This document shows, one piece after another, positions 1 through 23,539 of a stretch of DNA of 64,000 bases (position 1 is the first letter of the stretch; each line of letters starts with the position of its first letter). Position numbers and translations under genes: made by a program. The DNA is taken from sequence record MH359124, one strand, 5' to 3'. The stretch comes from Escherichia phage SF. A model generated the notes under the pieces. The model was not told the DNA's origin and did no database searches. It saw only the letters and a list, made by a program, of their open reading frames with translations.

Positions 1-36
1 TTTGACTATGAAAATTAACAGCAACGAACAAATTCT

Positions 37-62
37 TAAAAAGGCCCTTATGGGCCTTTTTG
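37..62 (+). terminator. Rho-independent terminator
   Basis: AAGGCCC-TTAT-GGGCCTT hairpin then TTTT; follows the upstream gene whose stop is at 16..18. Confidence 0.6.
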
Positions 63-194
63 AAACTAAAGCGGCTAAAGTGATTAAAGAGCCTGTTCAA
101 TTGTAATACTACGCTGATGCATTTCTTCATAGCGTTCTTGGAAGTATCGATGCTGAAGCTTTACGTTATATCAACATCGCTAAGAAATTCAAAT

Positions 195-219
195 AAGCTT
201 TATGAATTGAGTATATAAT
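195..219 (+). promoter_or_regulatory. Middle (MotA-dependent) promoter for gene 42
   Basis: MotA-box-like AAGCTTTA, 11-nt spacer, -10 TATAAT at about 214..219. Confidence 0.5.
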
Positions 220-237
220 AACTGTATTGAGGTAAAC

Positions 238-954
238 ATGGGAAAACATAACACAATGAAATATATTAAAGCCGCAGATTTTCAATCCGCATTTAAAGCT
301 GTCAATCGTGAAATTTTAGAAAATCCACAGTTCGTTACTGATTCTCGTATTGGACGTTGTAATGAAATTGGGTCTATGACAGTAGTTGTTGATACCCCTT
401 CATCATTCAAAATGACCGACCCACGTATTAATCGCATCTCTTATGAATATGCTGAAGATTTCTGGAAATTTATGATTTCTGGTGGTACTGATGCAGAAGA
501 AGCATTTAAGGCATATCCTAATGTCGCTAAATTTATTTCTAAACCAAAATCAGATGCTTTGCCTACGAACTTCAACACTTTCTATGGTCCTCGCATTGCG
601 GCCCAGTTACCAGCTCTTCTCAAAGAACTTAAAGAGAAACCTAATTCACGAAGAGTTGTGTTCCAAATTCTAGAAAGTTCAGATCAGGCTTTGCTTGATT
701 CAGACGAAACACTTGAATATCCATGTACTGACTCAGTGACTTATTATATTCGTGATGGTAAGCTTTATACCCACTGTCATATGCGTTCTCAGAACTGTGC
801 TGTTGTTATGCAGTTGGATTTTTATCTCCAAGGAAAATTACTTCATTATATCGCTAACGAATGTGGTGTAGAAGTTGGTGATTATACTCATACCATGGTA
901 AGTGCCCATGTGTTTGAACGTGATTTTGATTATGTTAAAGGATTCCTTGACTAA
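238..954 (+). CDS. 42: Thymidylate-synthase-family pyrimidine hydroxymethylase, probable dCMP hydroxymethylase (gene 42 position)
   Basis: 238-aa ORF; TS-fold core motifs (PCT..YYIRD..MRSQN) resemble dCMP hydroxymethylase, but N-terminal half looks diverged from T4 gp42 as remembered; synteny 42-[beta-gt locus]-uvsX; middle promoter upstream. Confidence 0.75.
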   Translation: MGKHNTMKYIKAADFQSAFKAVNREILENPQFVTDSRIGRCNEIGSMTVVVDTPSSFKMTDPRINRISYEYAEDFWKFMISGGTDAEEAFKAYPNVAKFISKPKSDALPTNFNTFYGPRIAAQLPALLKELKEKPNSRRVVFQILESSDQALLDSDETLEYPCTDSVTYYIRDGKLYTHCHMRSQNCAVVMQLDFYLQGKLLHYIANECGVEVGDYTHTMVSAHVFERDFDYVKGFLD

Positions 955-1853
955 TGGCTATTTTCCGCGTACCTATCTTGAGTATGCGGTCTTATGAAAC
1001 TGGACAGTATGCTATCCTTAAGGATGGCAACTTCCAACTTCATTTGCACCGTGCTAATCCAGGTGATGTGATTACATATCCACGTAATGCATCTGATATT
1101 AAAGAATGTGAACGTCTTTTCCCGGAATTTAAGTTTGTTCCATTATGGTATAAAGATAACGCATATAACACTCGTAAATATTTCTGGTCTGAAAATGAAT
1201 TTGTGGTTGATTCATTAATTGATTATTATGATTGTGATTTTCTAATCACAGATATCACTGGATATGACGGCACTTTTGACGTAGAATTCAATTTCAATAT
1301 CACTGCGGACCCTAATAAACCACGTTTTTATATTGACGAATTCTTAAAAACCGACATGTTGTCTGTTAATCGTTCACTTCAAACTACTGTGTTGAATGAA
1401 CGTCAAAAAGAAGTGCTGGTTAACGCAGGTGCAGATGGTAATAAGATTATCGTAACCCGGAAAGTTATACGTCCTTCCATCATGCAGCGTCTTGTAGGTG
1501 ATTTGGCTCCTATTCATCTAGATGGTATTTTTCATCCATTTCGAATTAGTGACCCGTGTTATCGTTTTGAACAAGTGGTTGAATGTGCAATTCAATTAGG
1601 TCAACCGCTTTATATAACCGATCCAAATAATAGCTTCGACAGAAATAAGTATCCTGAAGAAGCGCTGATTCGAATTTTTAATCCAACTAAAACTGAGTAC
1701 TATCAAATTCTTAAAGGACGGCCGAAGATTCAATATTTCGAAAATCCTGAAGAAGTATTCCATCCAGGTCTTGGCGAGTTCATCTACTTTAACGCTTTAA
1801 TTTCTTCACCGTATAATATACCTAAATATGAAGATGTCGTAATCGAGGAATAA
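954..1853 (+). CDS. Hypothetical protein at the beta-glucosyltransferase locus; candidate DNA-modification transferase
   Basis: 299-aa ORF starting at the stop of gene 42 (overlap ATGG); no similarity to T4 beta-gt that I can recognise; function inferred only from position. Confidence 0.5.
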   Translation: MAIFRVPILSMRSYETGQYAILKDGNFQLHLHRANPGDVITYPRNASDIKECERLFPEFKFVPLWYKDNAYNTRKYFWSENEFVVDSLIDYYDCDFLITDITGYDGTFDVEFNFNITADPNKPRFYIDEFLKTDMLSVNRSLQTTVLNERQKEVLVNAGADGNKIIVTRKVIRPSIMQRLVGDLAPIHLDGIFHPFRISDPCYRFEQVVECAIQLGQPLYITDPNNSFDRNKYPEEALIRIFNPTKTEYYQILKGRPKIQYFENPEEVFHPGLGEFIYFNALISSPYNIPKYEDVVIEE

Positions 1854-1854
1854 A

Positions 1855-2403
1855 ATGGCTAAAATTATTTTAGTAGATGGCCCGGATAATGCTGGTAAAA
1901 CAACTTTCATTAATGACATAATGGAAATTAGTGAAAGATATGTAAAGATTGATTTCCCTAAACGAACAGTTGATGGACGTTTCGACGTTAAGTCTCGAAA
2001 TGAAGTTGGCTGTTTCGAAACGATGTTGAATTATTTAGACCCTACTAAGATTTATCTGTTAGACCGTGGATATATTAGTAACTGGGTTTATGGACGTATT
2101 CGACAAGATGCGGACTCGGTTCTTGACGTTTATGAACAGGATTATGTTCGTCTTTGCCAAAACCACGATGTGTTCACAATTATTTTAACACGTAACGAAA
2201 TGACTGAAAGTTTTGAAGACGACCTTATTACTTTGTCTTCATTCGGTTTTAATACAGTAATTTCATATTTTGAAGAGTTTGCAATCCATAACGAAATCCA
2301 AACGTATCAATTACTTAATCATGATGGTGCTAACAAAGTTATAGGATTTAATGCAAGCGAACGTAATAATTTGATTACAGAAATCATCAAATGGGCTCGT
2401 TAA
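1855..2403 (+). CDS. P-loop kinase-like protein (dNMP/thymidylate-kinase-like)
   Basis: 182-aa ORF; Walker A GPDNAGKTT near N-terminus and LLDRGY motif typical of nucleotide kinases; 1 nt after previous stop. Confidence 0.55.
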   Translation: MAKIILVDGPDNAGKTTFINDIMEISERYVKIDFPKRTVDGRFDVKSRNEVGCFETMLNYLDPTKIYLLDRGYISNWVYGRIRQDADSVLDVYEQDYVRLCQNHDVFTIILTRNEMTESFEDDLITLSSFGFNTVISYFEEFAIHNEIQTYQLLNHDGANKVIGFNASERNNLITEIIKWAR

Positions 2404-2422
2404 GAGCCTGTTTAAAGTTTTT

Positions 2423-2450
2423 AAATGCTGTATAACCATTAGTATATAAT
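2423..2450 (+). promoter_or_regulatory. Middle promoter candidate for uvsX
   Basis: AAATGCTGTA box, 12-nt spacer, -10 TATAAT at about 2445..2450. Confidence 0.4.
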
Positions 2451-2503
2451 CATCTTATCTTTTAAACATGAGTAAAATATAATGATGCCTATGGAAAAAT
2501 ACA

Positions 2504-3676
2504 ATGTCTGATTTAAAATCTCGTCTGATTAAAGCTTCTACTTCTAAAATGACCGCAGACTTGACTAAGTCTAAGTTGTTTAATAATCGCGATGAAGTCC
2601 CTACTCGTATTCCGATGTTGAATATTGCATTAGGTGGTGCACTGAATGCTGGGTTGCAATCAGGCTTAACTATTTTTGCTGCTCCTTCTAAACACTTTAA
2701 AACGTTGTTTGGACTGACCATGGTTGCAGCATATATGAAGAAATATAAAGATGCAATTTGTTTGTTCTATGATTCTGAATTTGGTGCTTCAGAATCTTAT
2801 TTTCGTTCAATGGGTGTTGATTTAGACCGTGTAGTTCATACTCCGATTCAATCTGTCGAACAACTTAAAGTTGATATGACTAATCAGCTTGATGCTATCG
2901 AACGCGGTGATAAAGTTATTATCTTTATCGATTCAATCGGTAATACTGCATCTAAGAAAGAAACTGAAGATGCATTGAACGAGAAAGTCGTAGGTGATAT
3001 GTCTCGTGCTAAGGCACTTAAATCTCTTTTCCGTATTGTGACTCCTTATCTGACTATTAAAGATATTCCGTGTGTTGCAATCAACCATACAGCAATGGAA
3101 ATTGGCGGATTGTATCCTAAAGAGATTATGGGTGGTGGTACAGGTATTCTTTATTCTGCCAACACGGTATTTTTTATCTCTAAACGTCAGGTTAAAGAAG
3201 GTACAGAATTGACCGGTTATGACTTCACGTTGAAAGCAGAAAAATCTCGTACGGTTAAAGAAAAATCTACTTTCCCAATCACGGTTAATTTCGATGGTGG
3301 TATTGACCCATTCAGTGGCTTGTTAGAAATGGCAACTGAAATTGGTTTTGTAGTTAAGCCTAAAGCTGGTTGGTATGCTCGTGAATTCCTTGACGAGGAA
3401 ACAGGCGAAATGATTCGTGAAGAGAAATCATGGCGTGCTAAAGCTACTGATTGTGTAGAATTCTGGGGACCGTTGTTTAAACACAAACCTTTCCGAGATG
3501 CAATTGAAACTAAATATAAGCTAGGTGCTATCTCTTCTATTAAAGAAGTTGATGACGCTGTTAACGACCTTATTAATTGCAAAGCAACAACTAAAGTTCC
3601 GGTTAAAACTTCTGATGCTCCGTCTGCAGCAGATATAGAAAACGACCTTGACGAAATGGAAGATTTCGATGAATAA
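2504..3676 (+). CDS. uvsX: UvsX RecA-like recombinase
   Basis: 390-aa ORF; N-terminus and RecA-fold motifs match T4 UvsX from memory; correct synteny. Confidence 0.95.
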   Translation: MSDLKSRLIKASTSKMTADLTKSKLFNNRDEVPTRIPMLNIALGGALNAGLQSGLTIFAAPSKHFKTLFGLTMVAAYMKKYKDAICLFYDSEFGASESYFRSMGVDLDRVVHTPIQSVEQLKVDMTNQLDAIERGDKVIIFIDSIGNTASKKETEDALNEKVVGDMSRAKALKSLFRIVTPYLTIKDIPCVAINHTAMEIGGLYPKEIMGGGTGILYSANTVFFISKRQVKEGTELTGYDFTLKAEKSRTVKEKSTFPITVNFDGGIDPFSGLLEMATEIGFVVKPKAGWYAREFLDEETGEMIREEKSWRAKATDCVEFWGPLFKHKPFRDAIETKYKLGAISSIKEVDDAVNDLINCKATTKVPVKTSDAPSAADIENDLDEMEDFDE

Positions 3677-4010
3677 TCTCGATGATTTAAATCTAGAAAT
3701 CGTTGATGAATCCCCTTCTTCGGAAGGGGAAGACATTCGCAAAGAACGAGTGTTTAATGAATCTCTTAAAATTATCCGTTCAGCAATGGAAAATGTCATT
3801 CAAGAGATTCTGATTACGCTTGAAGATGGTTCTCATCATATAGTCTATATTACAAAACTAGACTGGGTTGATGGTAAAATCGTAATGGACTTTGCAGTTC
3901 TTGACCAGGACAGAAAAGCAGAACTTGCACCACATGTTGAAAAATGTGTTACAATGCAAGTACAACAAGCTTTTAATGAACGGACCAAGAAAAAATTTAA
4001 ATTCTTTTAA
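3669..4010 (+). CDS. 40: gp40 head vertex assembly chaperone-like
   Basis: ORF track 3648..4010; likely start at ATG 3669 overlapping the uvsX stop; position between uvsX and 41. Confidence 0.6.
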   Translation: MNNLDDLNLEIVDESPSSEGEDIRKERVFNESLKIIRSAMENVIQEILITLEDGSHHIVYITKLDWVDGKIVMDFAVLDQDRKAELAPHVEKCVTMQVQQAFNERTKKKFKFF

Positions 4011-5980: not shown

Positions 5981-6298
5981 ATGAAAACCATCGACTGTAA
6001 AGCAGAATTTAAGATTTTTTATCACGGATCAAGTAGTTCAGCTAACATAGAAAATATGCTTTGTCCTCCTGAGGAAACAGGAGTTCTGTCTGAAACTGGA
6101 CGTAAGAAAAACTTGGATCGTGTATTCTTTACTGAAGATATCGGTTTAGCAAAGATTTATGCAGGACGAGCAGCACGCTCTTGTGGAGGTGAACCACGTC
6201 TCTATCGAGTAATTTCTCCGGTAGACGTAGTTCAAATGAATAATACTAAAGGTGCTACAGTTTATCACGCTGAATGGGCATTTTGCGAGGAAATATGA
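5981..6298 (+). CDS. Hypothetical protein, possible minimal ADP-ribosyltransferase (Arr-like) fold
   Basis: 105-aa ORF; N-terminal FYHGS motif and later hydrophobic Y-x-V-x-SP segment reminiscent of Arr-family; weak, unverified. Confidence 0.55.
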   Translation: MKTIDCKAEFKIFYHGSSSSANIENMLCPPEETGVLSETGRKKNLDRVFFTEDIGLAKIYAGRAARSCGGEPRLYRVISPVDVVQMNNTKGATVYHAEWAFCEEI

Positions 6299-6483
6299 GC
6301 AAATTAACTAAAGTTACTTTTATCGGTTGGTTTAAAAGCGGCGAGATGTTCACTAAAGATATCATGTTATCAGGTGATCGCGAAGAAATCGAGTGGGTTG
6401 CGGTACAACTTGCCGAAGTGAACAACGCATTAGTTAAAGCATTTGTTAATGACGAGAAAGTTTTCGAAGCAGATTTTCGATAA
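6295..6483 (+). CDS. dmd: Dmd, discriminator of mRNA degradation (antitoxin against RnlA/LsoA)
   Basis: ORF track 6274..6483; start at ATG 6295 gives 62 aa; VTFIGWFKSGEMFTKDIM...ALVKAF closely resembles T4 Dmd. Confidence 0.75.
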   Translation: MSKLTKVTFIGWFKSGEMFTKDIMLSGDREEIEWVAVQLAEVNNALVKAFVNDEKVFEADFR

Positions 6484-6496
6484 TTTTAAAATAACC

Positions 6497-6526
6497 GTTT
6501 ACAAGCACCACATACTGTGTTACTAT
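6497..6526 (+). promoter_or_regulatory. Early promoter
   Basis: GTTTAC, 18 nt, TACTAT; drives lipoprotein ORF 6555. Confidence 0.55.
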
Positions 6527-6554
6527 CTTTCTATCAACTACAGAGGAAATTGAA

Positions 6555-6923
6555 ATGAAAAAATTAATCGCTTTAGCAATGGTATTTGGATTAACCGGAT
6601 GTGGTGCCCATGGCTTTATCCCTAATAACGTTGGCCAACTGATTTACAATCCGAATGTTAAACAGTATGAACAACCTAAAGTTGAAGTGGAAGACCCGGT
6701 TACTGTAGGTAATCGAATGATTCAAGCTGATGCTCATGCTCAACGTTATCGTGATTCTGATACTGTGGCTGTGTCAAAAGAACAACGCGTTAAAGAACAT
6801 TGCTTACAGGCTACTGAAATCGCATTCATTCGCTATGTTGAAACAACTGGTAAAGAGCCTACCCAGAAACAAATCGCAAATAACTACGTCCAGTGTATTG
6901 AACGTTTAAACAAATTTAATTAA
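6555..6923 (+). CDS. Putative lipoprotein
   Basis: 122-aa ORF; signal peptide with lipobox LTGC; own early promoter. Confidence 0.65.
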   Translation: MKKLIALAMVFGLTGCGAHGFIPNNVGQLIYNPNVKQYEQPKVEVEDPVTVGNRMIQADAHAQRYRDSDTVAVSKEQRVKEHCLQATEIAFIRYVETTGKEPTQKQIANNYVQCIERLNKFN

Positions 6924-10239: not shown

Positions 10240-10273
10240 TAACTTCTCTTATACTGAATTGAAAGGAAAAATA

Positions 10274-10795
10274 ATGGCGCACTTTAACGAATGTTCACAA
10301 CTTATTTCTGGTGTTGATAAAGCAGAAGAAGCTTATTTTAATGCTCTGATTCATGAAGATAAAGACCCATTGCAGGTAATGCTTGATATGCAGAAATCTT
10401 TACAGGTTCGTCTGGCAAATGACAAGCCTGAACATAACAAACATCCTGATGAATTGGCCACTGCTGGCGATGTTGTTGATTGGCTGCGTAATCAGAAAGA
10501 TTATATCGATGATGAATTCCGTGAACTGCTGACTTCACTTGGTGGTATGAGCAATGGTGAAAAAGCCGCTAGCTCTGTATGGAAGCCGTGGAAAGCACAA
10601 CATGCTGAATATCGAAATCGACGTATCGATGAACTGTCTCCTGAAGACCAGCTTGAAATTAAATTCGAGATGATTGATATCCTCCACTTTGTTCTGAATA
10701 TGTTCCAAGGCCTAGGTCTTTCCGCTGAAGAAATCTTTAAACTTTACTACTTGAAAAACCAACACAACTTTGAACGCCAGGATAATGGTTACTGA
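10274..10795 (+). CDS. 56: gp56 dCTPase/dUTPase (MazG-like)
   Basis: ORF track 10259..10795 (TTG); ATG 10274 gives MAHFNEC... matching the T4 gp56 N-terminus. Confidence 0.9.
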   Translation: MAHFNECSQLISGVDKAEEAYFNALIHEDKDPLQVMLDMQKSLQVRLANDKPEHNKHPDELATAGDVVDWLRNQKDYIDDEFRELLTSLGGMSNGEKAASSVWKPWKAQHAEYRNRRIDELSPEDQLEIKFEMIDILHFVLNMFQGLGLSAEEIFKLYYLKNQHNFERQDNGY

Positions 10796-10802
10796 TTAGG
10801 GT

Positions 10803-10810
10803 TATAAATA
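10803..10810 (+). promoter_or_regulatory. Late promoter (TATAAATA) for soc
   Basis: Exact TATAAATA 31 nt upstream of the soc ATG. Confidence 0.7.
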
Positions 10811-10841
10811 CACCTGTAATTAAACAACAAAGGAGTTAATT

Positions 10842-11078
10842 ATGGGTGGTTATGTAAACATCAAAACCTTTACACGTCCGGCTGGTGAAGGCAAAGAAGT
10901 TAAAGGTATGGAAGTTTCTGTACCGTTTGAGATTTATTCAAACGAACATCGGATTGCAGATTCTCATTACCAAATCTTTCCATCAGAAAAGGCAGCATAT
11001 TCTACTGTAGTTTCTGATGCAGCTGATTGGAAAACTAAGAATGCTGCAATGTTTACCCCTACACCAGTAAGCGGTTAA
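10842..11078 (+). CDS. soc: Soc small outer capsid protein
   Basis: 78-aa ORF; GYVNIKTF...HYQ.FPSEKAAYSTV matches T4 Soc; TATAAATA late promoter 31 nt upstream; terminator downstream. Confidence 0.85.
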   Translation: MGGYVNIKTFTRPAGEGKEVKGMEVSVPFEIYSNEHRIADSHYQIFPSEKAAYSTVVSDAADWKTKNAAMFTPTPVSG

Positions 11079-11086
11079 ATAATTTA

Positions 11087-11114
11087 AGGAATCCTTCGGG
11101 ATTCCTTTTTTTTG
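11087..11114 (+). terminator. Rho-independent terminator after soc
   Basis: AGGAATCC-TTCG-GGATTCCT then T8. Confidence 0.8.
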
Positions 11115-11122
11115 TTTCTAGA

Positions 11123-11152
11123 GTTTACAACCACTAAAAACTGTGTTAAGAT
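11123..11152 (+). promoter_or_regulatory. Early promoter
   Basis: GTTTAC, 18 nt, TAAGAT; drives ORF 11181. Confidence 0.5.
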
Positions 11153-11180
11153 ATTCTTACTTACTCAAGAGGAGAACAAT

Positions 11181-11622: not shown

Positions 11623-11798
11623 ACAGAATAGTAAAATGGTTTAAAAGCTGGAATGATGGAGTCGGACCAGAAGATTGGTTAGATGTTTTTGAAGAGAAAA
11701 TGGTCAAAGAACTCCAGAAACATGAAGAGAAGCTCGTCGAAGATGAAGGCGAACGTATTGTAAAACTTTATATGGGTGAACCATCGAGGAAATTATAA
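11619..11798 (+). CDS. Hypothetical small acidic protein (59 aa)
   Basis: Below the ORF-track cutoff; ATGA/TAATG overlaps with both neighbours typical of T4 early operons. Confidence 0.4.
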   Translation: MNRIVKWFKSWNDGVGPEDWLDVFEEKMVKELQKHEEKLVEDEGERIVKLYMGEPSRKL

Positions 11799-12262
11799 TG
11801 GATGCTATGCTATTTAAAATGTATTTGCTTGAAGCCAAGTCGTTTAAACATATACCAGTAGAAGATAAGACTCCACTAGAAATAGCTATTCTCATTAACA
11901 AATGTCTAAATAATCCGCAATATATCGTAGAAGAATTCTGCAAATTGCAGATTCCTAAAGGTTACAAAATTCGTGTAGAGCGAGTTGGAGCTATTACTCG
12001 TTCTAAAAATTCTCCGTTTAGTCTTGAAGAAGGCATAAAGGACTTAGGTTATGAATCTACGGAAAATGCCGTTTATGTGAATCCAGAAAAGCGTTTAGAT
12101 TTGTTTGAAAAGCGAGACCATAAGTATTTTGCCAAAAAATACTTTATTACGTCATTAGCAGATTTAATCCATTTGCAACGAGCTATTTGGAAATTTTTTA
12201 AGACAAAAGGTGTAGCGCTAGAAACATTCTCCGAACCTGCTAGTTTTTATCTCGGTGAATAA
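11798..12262 (+). CDS. Hypothetical protein
   Basis: 154-aa ORF, translationally coupled. Confidence 0.6.
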   Translation: MDAMLFKMYLLEAKSFKHIPVEDKTPLEIAILINKCLNNPQYIVEEFCKLQIPKGYKIRVERVGAITRSKNSPFSLEEGIKDLGYESTENAVYVNPEKRLDLFEKRDHKYFAKKYFITSLADLIHLQRAIWKFFKTKGVALETFSEPASFYLGE

Positions 12263-20578: not shown

Positions 20579-22396
20579 ATGATTAAAAATGAAATTAAGG
20601 TATTGTCAGACGTAGAACATATTAAGAAACGTAGTGGCATGTATATTGGTTCTTCGGCCAAAGAAGCCCATGAGCGTTTTTTGTTTGGTAAATATCAACA
20701 AGTTGAATATGTTCCTGGTCTGGTTAAATTAATCGATGAGATTATTGACAACTCGGTTGATGAAGCTATTCGTACATCATTTAAGTTTGCAAATAAAATT
20801 GATGTGCAAATTAAAAATAATCAAGTTTCGGTGGAAGATAACGGACGTGGTATTCCTCAAGGTTTAGTTACTGACCAAACAGGTGAACAAATTCCTGGGC
20901 CTGTAGCAGCCTGGACTATTCCAAAGGCTGGCGGTAACTTTGGTGATGACTCTGAACGTAAGACCGGTGGTATGAACGGCGTCGGGAGTAGTTTAACTAA
21001 TATCTTCTCTACGTTGTTTACAGGCATCACGTCAGATGGCGAAAATGAAATCACTGTTAACTGTTCAAACGGAATGGAAAACAAATCATGGTCTTCTAAG
21101 AAATCTAAAGGTAAAGGCACTAAAGTAATCTTCACTCCTGATTTCTCTTCATTTGAAGAGCATAATTTATCTCAAATTTATTTAGATATTACTTTAGACC
21201 GACTTCAAACATTGGCAGTCGTTTATCCTGATATCAAGTTCACATTTAATGGTAAAAAGGTTGATGGTAATTTTAAACGATTTGCTAAACAATTTGGCGA
21301 AGATAACATCATTCAAGAAAATGATAAAGTCTCTATAGCATTCACAACATCACCAGATGGCTTCCGTCATTTAACTTATGTGAATAACATCCATACTAAA
21401 AATGGCGGTCATCACGTTGAATGTGTAATGGATGATATCTGCGAACATCTTTTGCCTGGTATTAAAAAGAAATATAAGGGTATTGAAGTCACTAAAGCTC
21501 GTGTTAAAGAATGTCTCACAATGTTGATGTTTATTAGAGACATGAGCAACATGCGTTTTGATTCTCAGACTAAAGAACGTTTAACGTCAACGTATGGCGA
21601 TATTCGTAATCATATCCAATTAGATACTAAGAAAATTGCTCAGGCACTTCTTAAAAACGAAGCCTTGATTATGCCTATTGTTGAAGCAGCATTAGCTCGT
21701 AAATTGGCAGCAGAAAAAGCTGCAGAAACTAAAGCAGCTAAAAAGGCAACTAAAGCTAAGGTTCATAAGCATATTAAAGCTAACCAATGTGGTAAAGATG
21801 CAGATACGACATTGTTTTTAACAGAAGGTGATTCTGCAATTGGTTATCTCATTGATGTTCGTGACCGTGAACTACACGGCGGATTTCCATTACGTGGTAA
21901 GGTGATGAATAGCTGGGGTATGTCATATGCTGATATGATGAAGAACAAAGAGCTCTTTGATATCTGTGCTATCACAGGTCTTATTCTTGGTGAAAAGGCA
22001 GAGAATACGAACTATCGTAATATTGCAATTATGACCGATGCCGATCATGACGGTCTTGGAAGTATTTATCCGGCTTTGCTTGCTTTCTTTAGTAATTGGC
22101 CTGAATTGTTTGAACAAGGACGTATTCGCTTTGTTAAAACGCCTGTAATTATTGCACAAATTGGCAAAACTCAAAAATGGTTTTATACTGTAACTGAGTA
22201 TGAAGAAGCTAAAGATACACTGCCTAAGCATAGTATTCGATACATCAAAGGATTGGGCTCCCTTGAAAAGTCAGAATATCGTGAAATGATTCAGAACCCT
22301 GTGTACGACGTAGTTAAACTTCCTGAAAATTGGAAAGAACTCTTTGAAATGTTGTTGGGTGATGATTCAGAACTTCGTAAAGAATGGATGTCCTAA
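20579..22396 (+). CDS. 39: DNA topoisomerase II large subunit, fused gp39+gp60 equivalent (GyrB-like)
   Basis: 605-aa ORF; GHKL ATPase N-terminus and Toprim C-terminus in one reading frame (T4 splits this into 39 and 60). Confidence 0.9.
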   Translation: MIKNEIKVLSDVEHIKKRSGMYIGSSAKEAHERFLFGKYQQVEYVPGLVKLIDEIIDNSVDEAIRTSFKFANKIDVQIKNNQVSVEDNGRGIPQGLVTDQTGEQIPGPVAAWTIPKAGGNFGDDSERKTGGMNGVGSSLTNIFSTLFTGITSDGENEITVNCSNGMENKSWSSKKSKGKGTKVIFTPDFSSFEEHNLSQIYLDITLDRLQTLAVVYPDIKFTFNGKKVDGNFKRFAKQFGEDNIIQENDKVSIAFTTSPDGFRHLTYVNNIHTKNGGHHVECVMDDICEHLLPGIKKKYKGIEVTKARVKECLTMLMFIRDMSNMRFDSQTKERLTSTYGDIRNHIQLDTKKIAQALLKNEALIMPIVEAALARKLAAEKAAETKAAKKATKAKVHKHIKANQCGKDADTTLFLTEGDSAIGYLIDVRDRELHGGFPLRGKVMNSWGMSYADMMKNKELFDICAITGLILGEKAENTNYRNIAIMTDADHDGLGSIYPALLAFFSNWPELFEQGRIRFVKTPVIIAQIGKTQKWFYTVTEYEEAKDTLPKHSIRYIKGLGSLEKSEYREMIQNPVYDVVKLPENWKELFEMLLGDDSELRKEWMS

Positions 22397-22438: not shown

Positions 22439-23539
22439 ATGAAAGTTATGTTTATCCCATCTCGTGCAGTCCCATTTAATCCTGACCGTGTACAAGGTGG
22501 TCTTGAAGCAGTACATTTAAATGTGCTGAAATATTTAGTTTCTATTGGTGCCGATATTGATTATATCGGTTTTGATAATGACACGTTTGGTGACTGGAAA
22601 GTTACACACCACCCTGTTGGACATCTGACTAAATTCAGTCTAGGTATGAGTTATACTATGGCTCGTAAGATTGTTGAACTAGCCGGCATCCATGAATACG
22701 ATTTTGTTGTTACTATGGAACCGACTAAACTAACCGTTCAGGCAATTAAAGACGCAGGTCTCTCTAAAGTTCATAAGAATTTTATGGCAACACCATTTGA
22801 ACCTGTATCTCGTGGCATTGTTCAAATTTGGGACCAGACTATTCAAATTCATAAGAATGGTGGTAAGAGTTATGCTCCTACTAAAGCCTTCCGTGAATTT
22901 GAACGCAAATATTGTTATATGACTTCAGGTCTGACTGACAAAATTGATTATGATTATTGGCGAGCAAATCCGTTGTTTGAAGCCGAAGATTATCCGGTTA
23001 TTTGTTTGAATGAGAAACCTGAAGTTCTTCCTGCGACTGATCTGATTATTAGTGCACAACGTTATGACACTAAAATGCGTCGTACTGATGTTGCTCTTGA
23101 AGCGATTAAAGCACTAGGCGAAAATGGTGTAGGATACTGTCCAAGCAAATGGGCACCACCAGCTAAATATCCTGTTATTATTGATGCTCCACACAGTGAA
23201 ATCATGGAACGTCTTAAAACAGCTAAAGCACTTATTAATACGTGTCCTGACACAGGTACGGTAGAGAATAGTTCTATTGAAGCCATCTCTAAAGGTGTCC
23301 CTGTAATCCAGTTAGTTTTTAAGGATTATCCTCATGCGACATTCGAATACGACCCAGATACTGTGCGTGTAGAAATTGATTCCTCTACTCCTAAGAAAGA
23401 AGTAGTTGCGCTTTACACAAAAGCTGTATTAGAATTCACTGACACATACGAAGCTCGAGTTAAACGTGCTGAAGCAGTATGGAAGAAGTATAACCGAGAT
23501 GCAGTTGTTGCGATGTGGGATAAAATCTTCACAGCGTAA
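22439..23539 (+). CDS. GT-B-fold glycosyltransferase-like protein, candidate DNA sugar transferase
   Basis: 366-aa ORF; C-terminal ENSSIEAISKGVPVIQ resembles the GT4/GT-B donor-binding motif; sits where T4 has 60/mobA/rIIA.1. Confidence 0.55.
   Translation: MKVMFIPSRAVPFNPDRVQGGLEAVHLNVLKYLVSIGADIDYIGFDNDTFGDWKVTHHPVGHLTKFSLGMSYTMARKIVELAGIHEYDFVVTMEPTKLTVQAIKDAGLSKVHKNFMATPFEPVSRGIVQIWDQTIQIHKNGGKSYAPTKAFREFERKYCYMTSGLTDKIDYDYWRANPLFEAEDYPVICLNEKPEVLPATDLIISAQRYDTKMRRTDVALEAIKALGENGVGYCPSKWAPPAKYPVIIDAPHSEIMERLKTAKALINTCPDTGTVENSSIEAISKGVPVIQLVFKDYPHATFEYDPDTVRVEIDSSTPKKEVVALYTKAVLEFTDTYEARVKRAEAVWKKYNRDAVVAMWDKIFTA

Follow-up and report, generated by a model that had tools for sequence, protein, structure and literature searches.

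The DNA of phage RB69 contains mono- and di-arabinofuranosyl-5-hydroxycytosine, not arabinosyl-hydroxymethylcytosine, and the pathway behind it has been covered in publications from 2018 to 2026 (Thomas, 2018; Lee et al., NAR 2026, PMC13326640). Mono- or di-arabinosyl-5-hydroxycytosine has been demonstrated in the virion DNA of RB69, NP, Bas46/47, and HY126. Work by Mahler in 2025 and by He in 2026 reportedly covers the arabinosyl-5-hydroxycytosine phage pathway as well. The T4 beta-glucosyltransferase (beta-gt) acts on hydroxymethylcytosine with uridine diphosphate (UDP)-glucose as donor, whereas RB69-type phages glycosylate 5-hydroxycytosine, so that the ether forms on the ring itself, and use UDP-arabinofuranose as donor (PMC13326640). 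Here we examine three translationally linked open reading frames (ORFs) at positions 238–2403 of a 64,000-nt stretch of Escherichia phage SF (MH359124), referred to below as the window, with coordinates given on one strand from its first letter. We consider it very probable that they are the core operon of this published hypermodification pathway as it occurs in RB69-like (Mosigvirus) phages. The three ORFs are orthologous to RB69 gp48, gp46:47, and gp45, and a second glycosyltransferase and a dCTPase are encoded elsewhere in the genome, as in other arabinosyl-5-hydroxycytosine clusters. An earlier interpretation made from the DNA letters alone (the sequence-only reading) had proposed the second and third genes as an undescribed system; the locus and both proteins are in fact already known, because they are orthologs of published RB69 and Acinetobacter phage DLP3 proteins, and precisely this pair appears in the gene list of Lee et al.

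Genes and other elements are listed in Table 1. The synthase and glycosyltransferase genes meet in a TAATG junction in which base 954 is common to stop and start, and one base (1854) lies between the TAA of the glycosyltransferase gene and the ATG of the kinase gene. The interval between gene 42 and uvsX in T4 contains b-gt and segA (T4 genome comparison). The sequence-only reading had described a gene pair at 954–2403 in the beta-gt slot with a 1-nt spacing, and the ORFs, junctions, and motifs all proved to be in place. Bases 1–4000 of the window align over their full length, at 97–98% identity, with 151 phage genomes (including PNJ-6, PHB12, F2, HY126, and ST0), one of which is placed in Mosigvirus, the genus of RB69 (Straboviridae; Tevenvirinae). 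The window itself is RB69-like, Mosigvirus DNA. Directly upstream of the equivalent region in related genomes are genes for a nucleotidyltransferase/kinase, a HAD phosphatase, and a U32-like protein.

Table 1. Features of the arabinosyl-5-hydroxycytosine locus and its surroundings in the window, and of related clusters on environmental contigs (L004–L011).
Feature	Position	Strand	Details
5-Hydroxy-dCMP synthase, RB69 gp48 ortholog	238..954	+	238 aa; PDB 9IQC/9IR2 and Pfam Thymidylat_synt
Predicted first (base-proximal, alpha) arabinofuranosyltransferase, compact GT-B, RB69 gp46:47 ortholog	954..1853	+	299 aa
Thymidylate-kinase-like P-loop nucleotide kinase, RB69 gp45 ortholog	1855..2403	+	182 aa
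Terminator-like hairpin over kinase stop codon	2389..2413	+	Consensus scan: 10-pair stem, then T-rich tail
uvsX	2504-3676	+	Downstream of the three coupled ORFs
dCTPase-type nucleoside triphosphate pyrophosphohydrolase, T4 gp56 / RB69 gp28 counterpart	10274..10795	+	Pfam dUTPase_2
Second GT-B glycosyltransferase, RB69 gp3/ORF003c ortholog, proposed arabinosyltransferase 2	22439..23539	+	366 aa
Flavodoxin_2 genes	L009:3739-4293, L010:3715-4275, L011:3117-3617, L004:1-523, L005:605-1123		Environmental contigs
YAcAr-domain / dCMP deaminase neighbours	L004:9818-10201, 11702-12115; L005:9600-10010, 10758-11174		

We assign the product of gene 238–954 as a 5-hydroxy-deoxycytidine monophosphate (5-hydroxy-dCMP) synthase, by its sequence a flavin- and O2-dependent dCMP 5-hydroxylase of the thymidylate synthase superfamily, because of its match to PDB 9IQC, a D169N substitution absent from T4 gp42, and the chemistry published for its RB69 ortholog. 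Across 238 aa, the 238-amino acid (aa) protein shares 99% identity with the phage HY126 enzyme (PDB 9IQC/9IR2/9IQU); it matches Pfam Thymidylat_synt (E = 2.3e-15), and is 25% identical to T4 gp42. It reads YPC...MRSQNCAVVMQLD where the T4 gp42 equivalent is MRSNDVVFGFRND, with the catalytic Cys present in the window protein. Its motif RSQN...QLD corresponds to D169N and N177D in E. coli ThyA numbering, compared to RSND...RND in T4 gp42, and D169N is diagnostic of 5-hydroxy-dCMP synthases (Lee et al., NAR 2026, PMC13326640). RB69 gp48 has been demonstrated to produce 5-hydroxy-dCMP; it binds flavin, and the hydroxyl oxygen is derived from O2 (PMC13326640, which credits the HY126 crystal structure to He et al. 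2026). Of the idea that the two following genes are coupled to a hydroxymethylase gene, the coupling to a thymidylate synthase homolog stands, but the D169N enzyme makes 5-hydroxy-dCMP. In many records the 5-hydroxy-dCMP synthase still goes under the name “dCMP hydroxymethylase”, or else “thymidylate synthase”. Such misannotation leads to wrong expectations about the defences (restriction, CRISPR, or glycosylase) that a therapeutic phage will evade.

The 299-aa protein is predicted, from orthology and a structural model, to be a compact GT4-like GT-B enzyme and the first arabinosyltransferase of the pathway; gp46:47 is listed as arabinosyltransferase 1 (PMC13326640). Residues 1–181 share 97% identity with RB69 gp47 and residues 184–299 share 98% with gp46, which are a single ORF split through sequencing error (PMC13326640). 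Apart from the gene being intact in the window and split in the RB69 reference, it does not differ from RB69 gp46:47 or DLP3 gp79 (arabinosyltransferase 1), whose function is predicted. The RB69 reference NC_004928 (RB69p046/p047) still shows two ORFs, while in the window and 339 other records the protein, roughly 299 aa long, is encoded intact; in many GenBank records this gene is still a “hypothetical protein”. The AlphaFold2 model (predicted local distance difference test, pLDDT, of 94.6 from a 40-sequence alignment) shows a pair of Rossmann-like domains separated by a cleft, consistent with a GT-B (GT4-like) fold. Sequence searches gave no match in Pfam (E up to 1), NCBIfam, or PDB sequences, and in PHROGs the protein belongs to family 3891, of unknown function. 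Orthology to T4 beta-gt was considered and rejected, in agreement with the sequence-only reading: the family profile aligned to it with an hhalign probability of 0.3%, and we found no sequence relationship to beta-gt (351 aa vs. 299 aa) or to alpha-gt.

The 182-aa protein is 99% identical to RB69 gp45, which is listed as a nucleotide kinase in Table 1 of PMC13326640 and within its gp45–gp55 cluster range only, without a reaction; its structural matches are the same thymidylate-kinase-like ones obtained for RB69 gp45, DLP3 gp78, and RL38J1_214, and nothing sets it apart from them. Neither the literature accessible to us on the Afh genes nor the citing papers contain a statement on this kinase. 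The protein has a Walker A sequence DGPDNAGKTT (residues 8–17) and an LLDRGY motif (residues 68–73), and it matches PHROGs family 761 “thymidylate kinase” (5e-45). Its AlphaFold2 model (pLDDT 88) matched thymidylate kinases and deoxynucleoside kinases in a viral fold library, with nucleotide-level thymidylate kinases as closest structural neighbours, and combines the thymidylate kinase fold with P-loop, FPxR-type, and DR(Y/H) motifs. Structure prediction and fold search, which the sequence-only reading had suggested for both proteins, thus returned a GT-B-like model for the larger and bore out its call of a thymidylate-kinase-like P-loop kinase for the smaller. Weak hidden Markov model (HMM) alignments with the thymidylate kinases of vaccinia and yeast pair the P-loop including its Asp, FP[KQE]R, and DR. 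In thymidylate kinases, the Asp at this P-loop position makes contact with the 3'-OH. No structural or sequence similarity to T4 gp1 (PDB 1DEK) was found, and the nearest solved sequence relative, the uncharacterised Bacillus subtilis SPbeta protein YorR (PDB 2AXP/3KB2), gives no functional guidance.

Residues D11, G14, K15, F34, K36, G41, D70, R71, S75, N76, V78, Y79, R113, F120, D122, D123, I125, F132, and N133 of the kinase persist in homologs at 26–28% identity, so the catalytic set is intact. An invariant acidic motif specific to this kinase family, F-x-DD-x-I, lies in a lid-like loop, where deoxythymidine monophosphate (dTMP) kinases (PF02223, TIGR00041) have an arginine-rich lid segment. 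Unlike a dTMP kinase, the protein is invariably encoded together with a cytosine hydroxylase and a glycosyltransferase, and this genomic linkage argues for a cytosine-derived nucleotide as its substrate.

Two further pathway genes lie in the window. The second glycosyltransferase matches PDB 9IQZ/9IR0, the “phage HY126 glycosyltransferase”, over all 366 aa (E = 4.7e-251), with no Pfam match. It is positioned between the topoisomerase II large subunit gene (20579–22396) and rIIA, as is gp109 in phage F2; a role for RB69 gp3/ORF003c as second arabinosyltransferase has been proposed (PMC13326640). The dCTPase-type ORF matches Pfam dUTPase_2 above the family cut-off (E = 1e-6), its phage F2 equivalent is annotated as a nucleoside triphosphate pyrophosphohydrolase, and RB69p028 is listed as dCTPase (PMC13326640). 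The ORF list starts this gene at a TTG at 10259, and the annotated ATG of phage F2 corresponds to 10274. Three enzymes whose genes all lie upstream of the window make UDP-arabinofuranose from ribulose-5-phosphate: an isomerase, AfhE (a bifunctional kinase/pyrophosphorylase), and AfhF (a phosphatase). In this donor pathway, the dedicated pyrophosphorylase is the AfhE N-terminal domain (RB69 gp52:53). Synthesis of UDP-arabinofuranose is attributed to genes other than gp45 and gp46:47 (PMC13326640). The suggestion that the kinase might supply an arabinose donor was right in that the lineage uses arabinose, as RB69 does, but the 182-aa kinase is not needed for this, because the isomerase, AfhE, and AfhF already account for UDP-arabinofuranose.

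Synthase, glycosyltransferase, and kinase travel together. In tblastn searches, 347 phage records contained the 299-aa protein and 342 contained the kinase, with near-equal counts by host genus (glycosyltransferase/kinase: Escherichia 175/175, Acinetobacter 57/57, Shigella 15/15). The gene order is kept in at least 10 Straboviridae genera, in Shewanella phage Thanatos (kinase 44% identical), and in five distant environmental contigs. Two of the latter (217 kb and 356 kb) also contain SIS, APH-domain, HAD-like, and Flavodoxin_2 genes, and three (L009–L011) have a compact cassette of Flavodoxin_2, thymidylate synthase homolog, glycosyltransferase, and kinase, with no sugar-activation genes in the 5 kb fetched on each side. 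Among 47 kinase clusters with a longest contig of at least 10 kb, 17 share a contig of exactly the same size with a cluster of the 299-aa family. Rhizobium phage RL38J1 has the trio as consecutive genes (locus tags 214–216) with galactose as first sugar (PMC13326640, Table 1); for the Pootjesviridae the trio rests on that table, as our homology searches recovered no Rhizobium phage relatives, and one Rhizobium phage protein appeared at rank 46 in the viral fold search. Because the RL38J1 trio goes with galactose, the kinase tracks the hydroxylase and the first glycosyltransferase and not arabinose.

Taken with what has been demonstrated in close homologs, the locus suggests the following route. 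The dCTPase-type enzyme would provide dCMP and keep dCTP out, and the synthase would convert dCMP to 5-hydroxy-dCMP with flavin and O2. A gp1-type kinase would phosphorylate 5-hydroxy-dCMP to the diphosphate, as demonstrated in orthologs. The catalytically intact 182-aa kinase probably phosphorylates a 5-substituted deoxycytidylate; most simply, it would be the cassette's own 5-hydroxy-dCMP kinase, moving the modified nucleotide toward the triphosphate. Phages that lack a gp1-type kinase could then not do without it, and in T4-like phages it would raise flux. Host nucleoside diphosphate kinase would then make the triphosphate for incorporation by the phage polymerase. 5-Hydroxycytosine is known to be incorporated into DNA, with later arabinoses added on DNA (PMC13326640). 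The 299-aa enzyme would fill the role that beta-gt has in T4, moving the first D-arabinofuranose from UDP-arabinofuranose onto the cytosine 5-OH, and the second glycosyltransferase would place the second arabinose on DNA.

Several observations weigh against this assignment of the two proteins. We found no report of transferase activity for the 299-aa protein in the accessible literature, and the DLP3 glycosyltransferases, purified and assayed singly, were inactive on 5-hydroxycytosine DNA (PMC13326640). For TH1_063 of Shewanella phage Thanatos-1, a UDP-xylose-forming activity with UTP and xylose-1-phosphate as substrates was reported (PMC12838424). The 182-aa protein scored 15.6 bits against TIGR00041, compared to a cut-off of 83.25, and had no match to Pfam PF02223; a distant family member reached 23.8 bits in the PF02223/TIGR00041 comparison, for which the threshold was 27. 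Finally, a T4-gp1-type deoxynucleoside monophosphate (dNMP) kinase, RB69 gp159, phosphorylates 5-hydroxy-dCMP (PMC13326640), so a second 5-hydroxy-dCMP kinase looks redundant, and yet it is retained everywhere.

The best-placed alternative is that glycosylation precedes replication, which we regard as unlikely. Under it, the 299-aa enzyme would arabinosylate free 5-hydroxy-dCMP and the 182-aa kinase would be specialised for the bulky arabinosyl-5-O-dCMP, which the gp1-type kinase could not handle; the first sugar would enter DNA via the polymerase and only later sugars would be added on DNA. What keeps this explanation in play is the near-universal retention of the kinase alongside gp1: with 5-hydroxy-dCMP already taken by the gp1-type enzyme, a retained second kinase plausibly has a different substrate. 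The conserved order of overlapping or abutting genes, from Mosigvirus to phages 26–28% identical and including the L009–L011 cassettes, is consistent with it, as is the 214–216 trio of the galactose-using RL38J1 (PMC13326640, Table 1). Thymidylate kinases by nature act on pyrimidine dNMPs with a substituent at position 5, and the motifs that bind the deoxynucleotide are retained here. The failure of the first-step glycosyltransferases to act singly on 5-hydroxycytosine DNA also fits, and its authors cannot tell whether the first arabinosylation occurs at the mononucleotide or after replication (PMC13326640). The glycosyltransferase and the kinase are moreover both acidic, with isoelectric points (pI) of 5.06 and 4.74. 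On the other hand, all characterised phage DNA glycosylation acts on DNA, including that by T4 alpha- and beta-gt and by DLP3 gp76/77; inactivity of purified enzymes is weak negative evidence; and 5-hydroxycytosine readily enters DNA, so that an acceptor exists at that level. Gene order and acidity are only suggestive.

In its general form, that the universally linked GT-B/kinase pair acts on free nucleotides, with 5-hydroxy-dCMP glycosylated and then phosphorylated by a dedicated kinase, we hold this proposal to be rather doubtful. If true, it would be the first case of a DNA precursor glycosylated ahead of replication, and flavin reductase-like protein, hydroxylase, glycosyltransferase, and kinase would constitute a portable four-gene module. 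The substrate of the kinase would also tell whether attachment of the first sugar precedes replication or follows it.

A much less probable alternative concerns the first arabinosyltransferase, namely that the 299-aa protein is a UDP-pentose pyrophosphorylase making the sugar donor and not a transferase. It derives from the activity of purified TH1_063 noted above; this protein (5995–6897 of the region fetched) is a syntenic homolog with 47.5% identity. However, the donor pathway already has a pyrophosphorylase in the N-terminal domain of AfhE (RB69 gp52:53), and the transfer assays in the Thanatos study used unhydroxylated cytosine acceptors, which makes their negative result uninformative (PMC12838424). 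In the compact environmental cassettes, the homolog of the 299-aa protein is the sole candidate transferase within 5 kb on each side. A pyrophosphorylase read-out is also hard to reconcile with the GT-B fold predicted for the family.

For the kinase, we find it highly improbable that the 182-aa protein simply phosphorylates dTMP and has no part in the modification. Its fold is that of a thymidylate kinase, and several genome records annotate it as such. Against this stand the low TIGR00041 score and missing PF02223 match given above, and the vaccinia helix with the thymine-O4-binding Arg is, in a weak HMM alignment, an insertion absent from the kinase family. In T4-type phages dTMP is phosphorylated by gp1, which is present in these phages, and the translationally linked 182-aa protein is distributed nearly one-to-one with the 299-aa protein and the hydroxylase.

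Least credible of all, to the point of being negligible, is the analogy drawn in the sequence-only reading with 5-hydroxymethyldeoxyuridine (5-hmdU) DNA kinases, in which the kinase would phosphorylate the modified base within DNA to activate it for transfer by the 299-aa protein: gp54 of Pseudomonas phage M6 is likewise a small P-loop kinase whose gene belongs to a base-hypermodification cluster, here too the kinase gene adjoins a DNA-modification transferase gene, and the family profile aligns with gp54 over 82 columns (81% probability), but that similarity is confined to the P-loop region, PF18748 has no match at E up to 1 (vs. 7.7e-18 for the control M6 gp54), the top structural neighbours are nucleotide-level enzymes, the protein is strongly acidic (net charge -10), the neighbours are a thymidylate synthase homolog, a GT-B sugar-nucleotide transferase, and uvsX where 5-hmdU DNA kinases co-occur with aGPT-Pplase-type amino-acid:DNA transferases, and, as a matter of chemistry, O-glycosylation from UDP-arabinofuranose would need a free 5-OH nucleophile instead of a phosphorylated leaving group.

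Distant environmental phages have a Flavodoxin_2 gene (Pfam E = 1.7e-13) directly 5' of the thymidylate synthase homolog or inside the cluster. It is plausible that its product is an NAD(P)H:flavin reductase that gives the hydroxylase reduced flavin; no Flavodoxin_2-type gene adjoins the synthase at the Mosigvirus locus. The 217-kb and 356-kb contigs carry a YAcAr-domain gene after the kinase and a dCMP deaminase gene slightly beyond. In one cassette, faint NUMOD3 (homing-endonuclease) genes flank the glycosyltransferase (L011:4304-4996, minus strand; L011:6091-7005, plus strand), parting it from the synthase and kinase with the order unchanged; T4 has segA in the equivalent slot.

The hairpin over the kinase stop codon likely marks the end of the three-gene unit, although as evidence it is weak because terminator-like sites in the region are not above shuffled expectation. 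The promoter and terminator scan of the region found no more sites than in shuffled sequence, which leaves the boundaries of the transcription unit tentative. A GC-rich hairpin with a T run at about 42–57 was rejected as a terminator, as it lies inside the upstream coding sequence according to the phage F2 annotation. The sigma-70 scan did not list two elements on the plus strand: AAGCTTTA followed 11 nt later by TATAAT at 194–219, 5' of the ORF at 238, and TGCTGTA followed 12 nt later by TATAAT at 2425–2451, 5' of uvsX. Both resemble T4 MotA-dependent middle promoters. The RefSeq record of Escherichia phage F2 (NC_054913.1) is labelled Tequatrovirus; in this region it shares 98% identity with the Mosigvirus locus and has the arabinosylation genes, and the genus label looks wrong.

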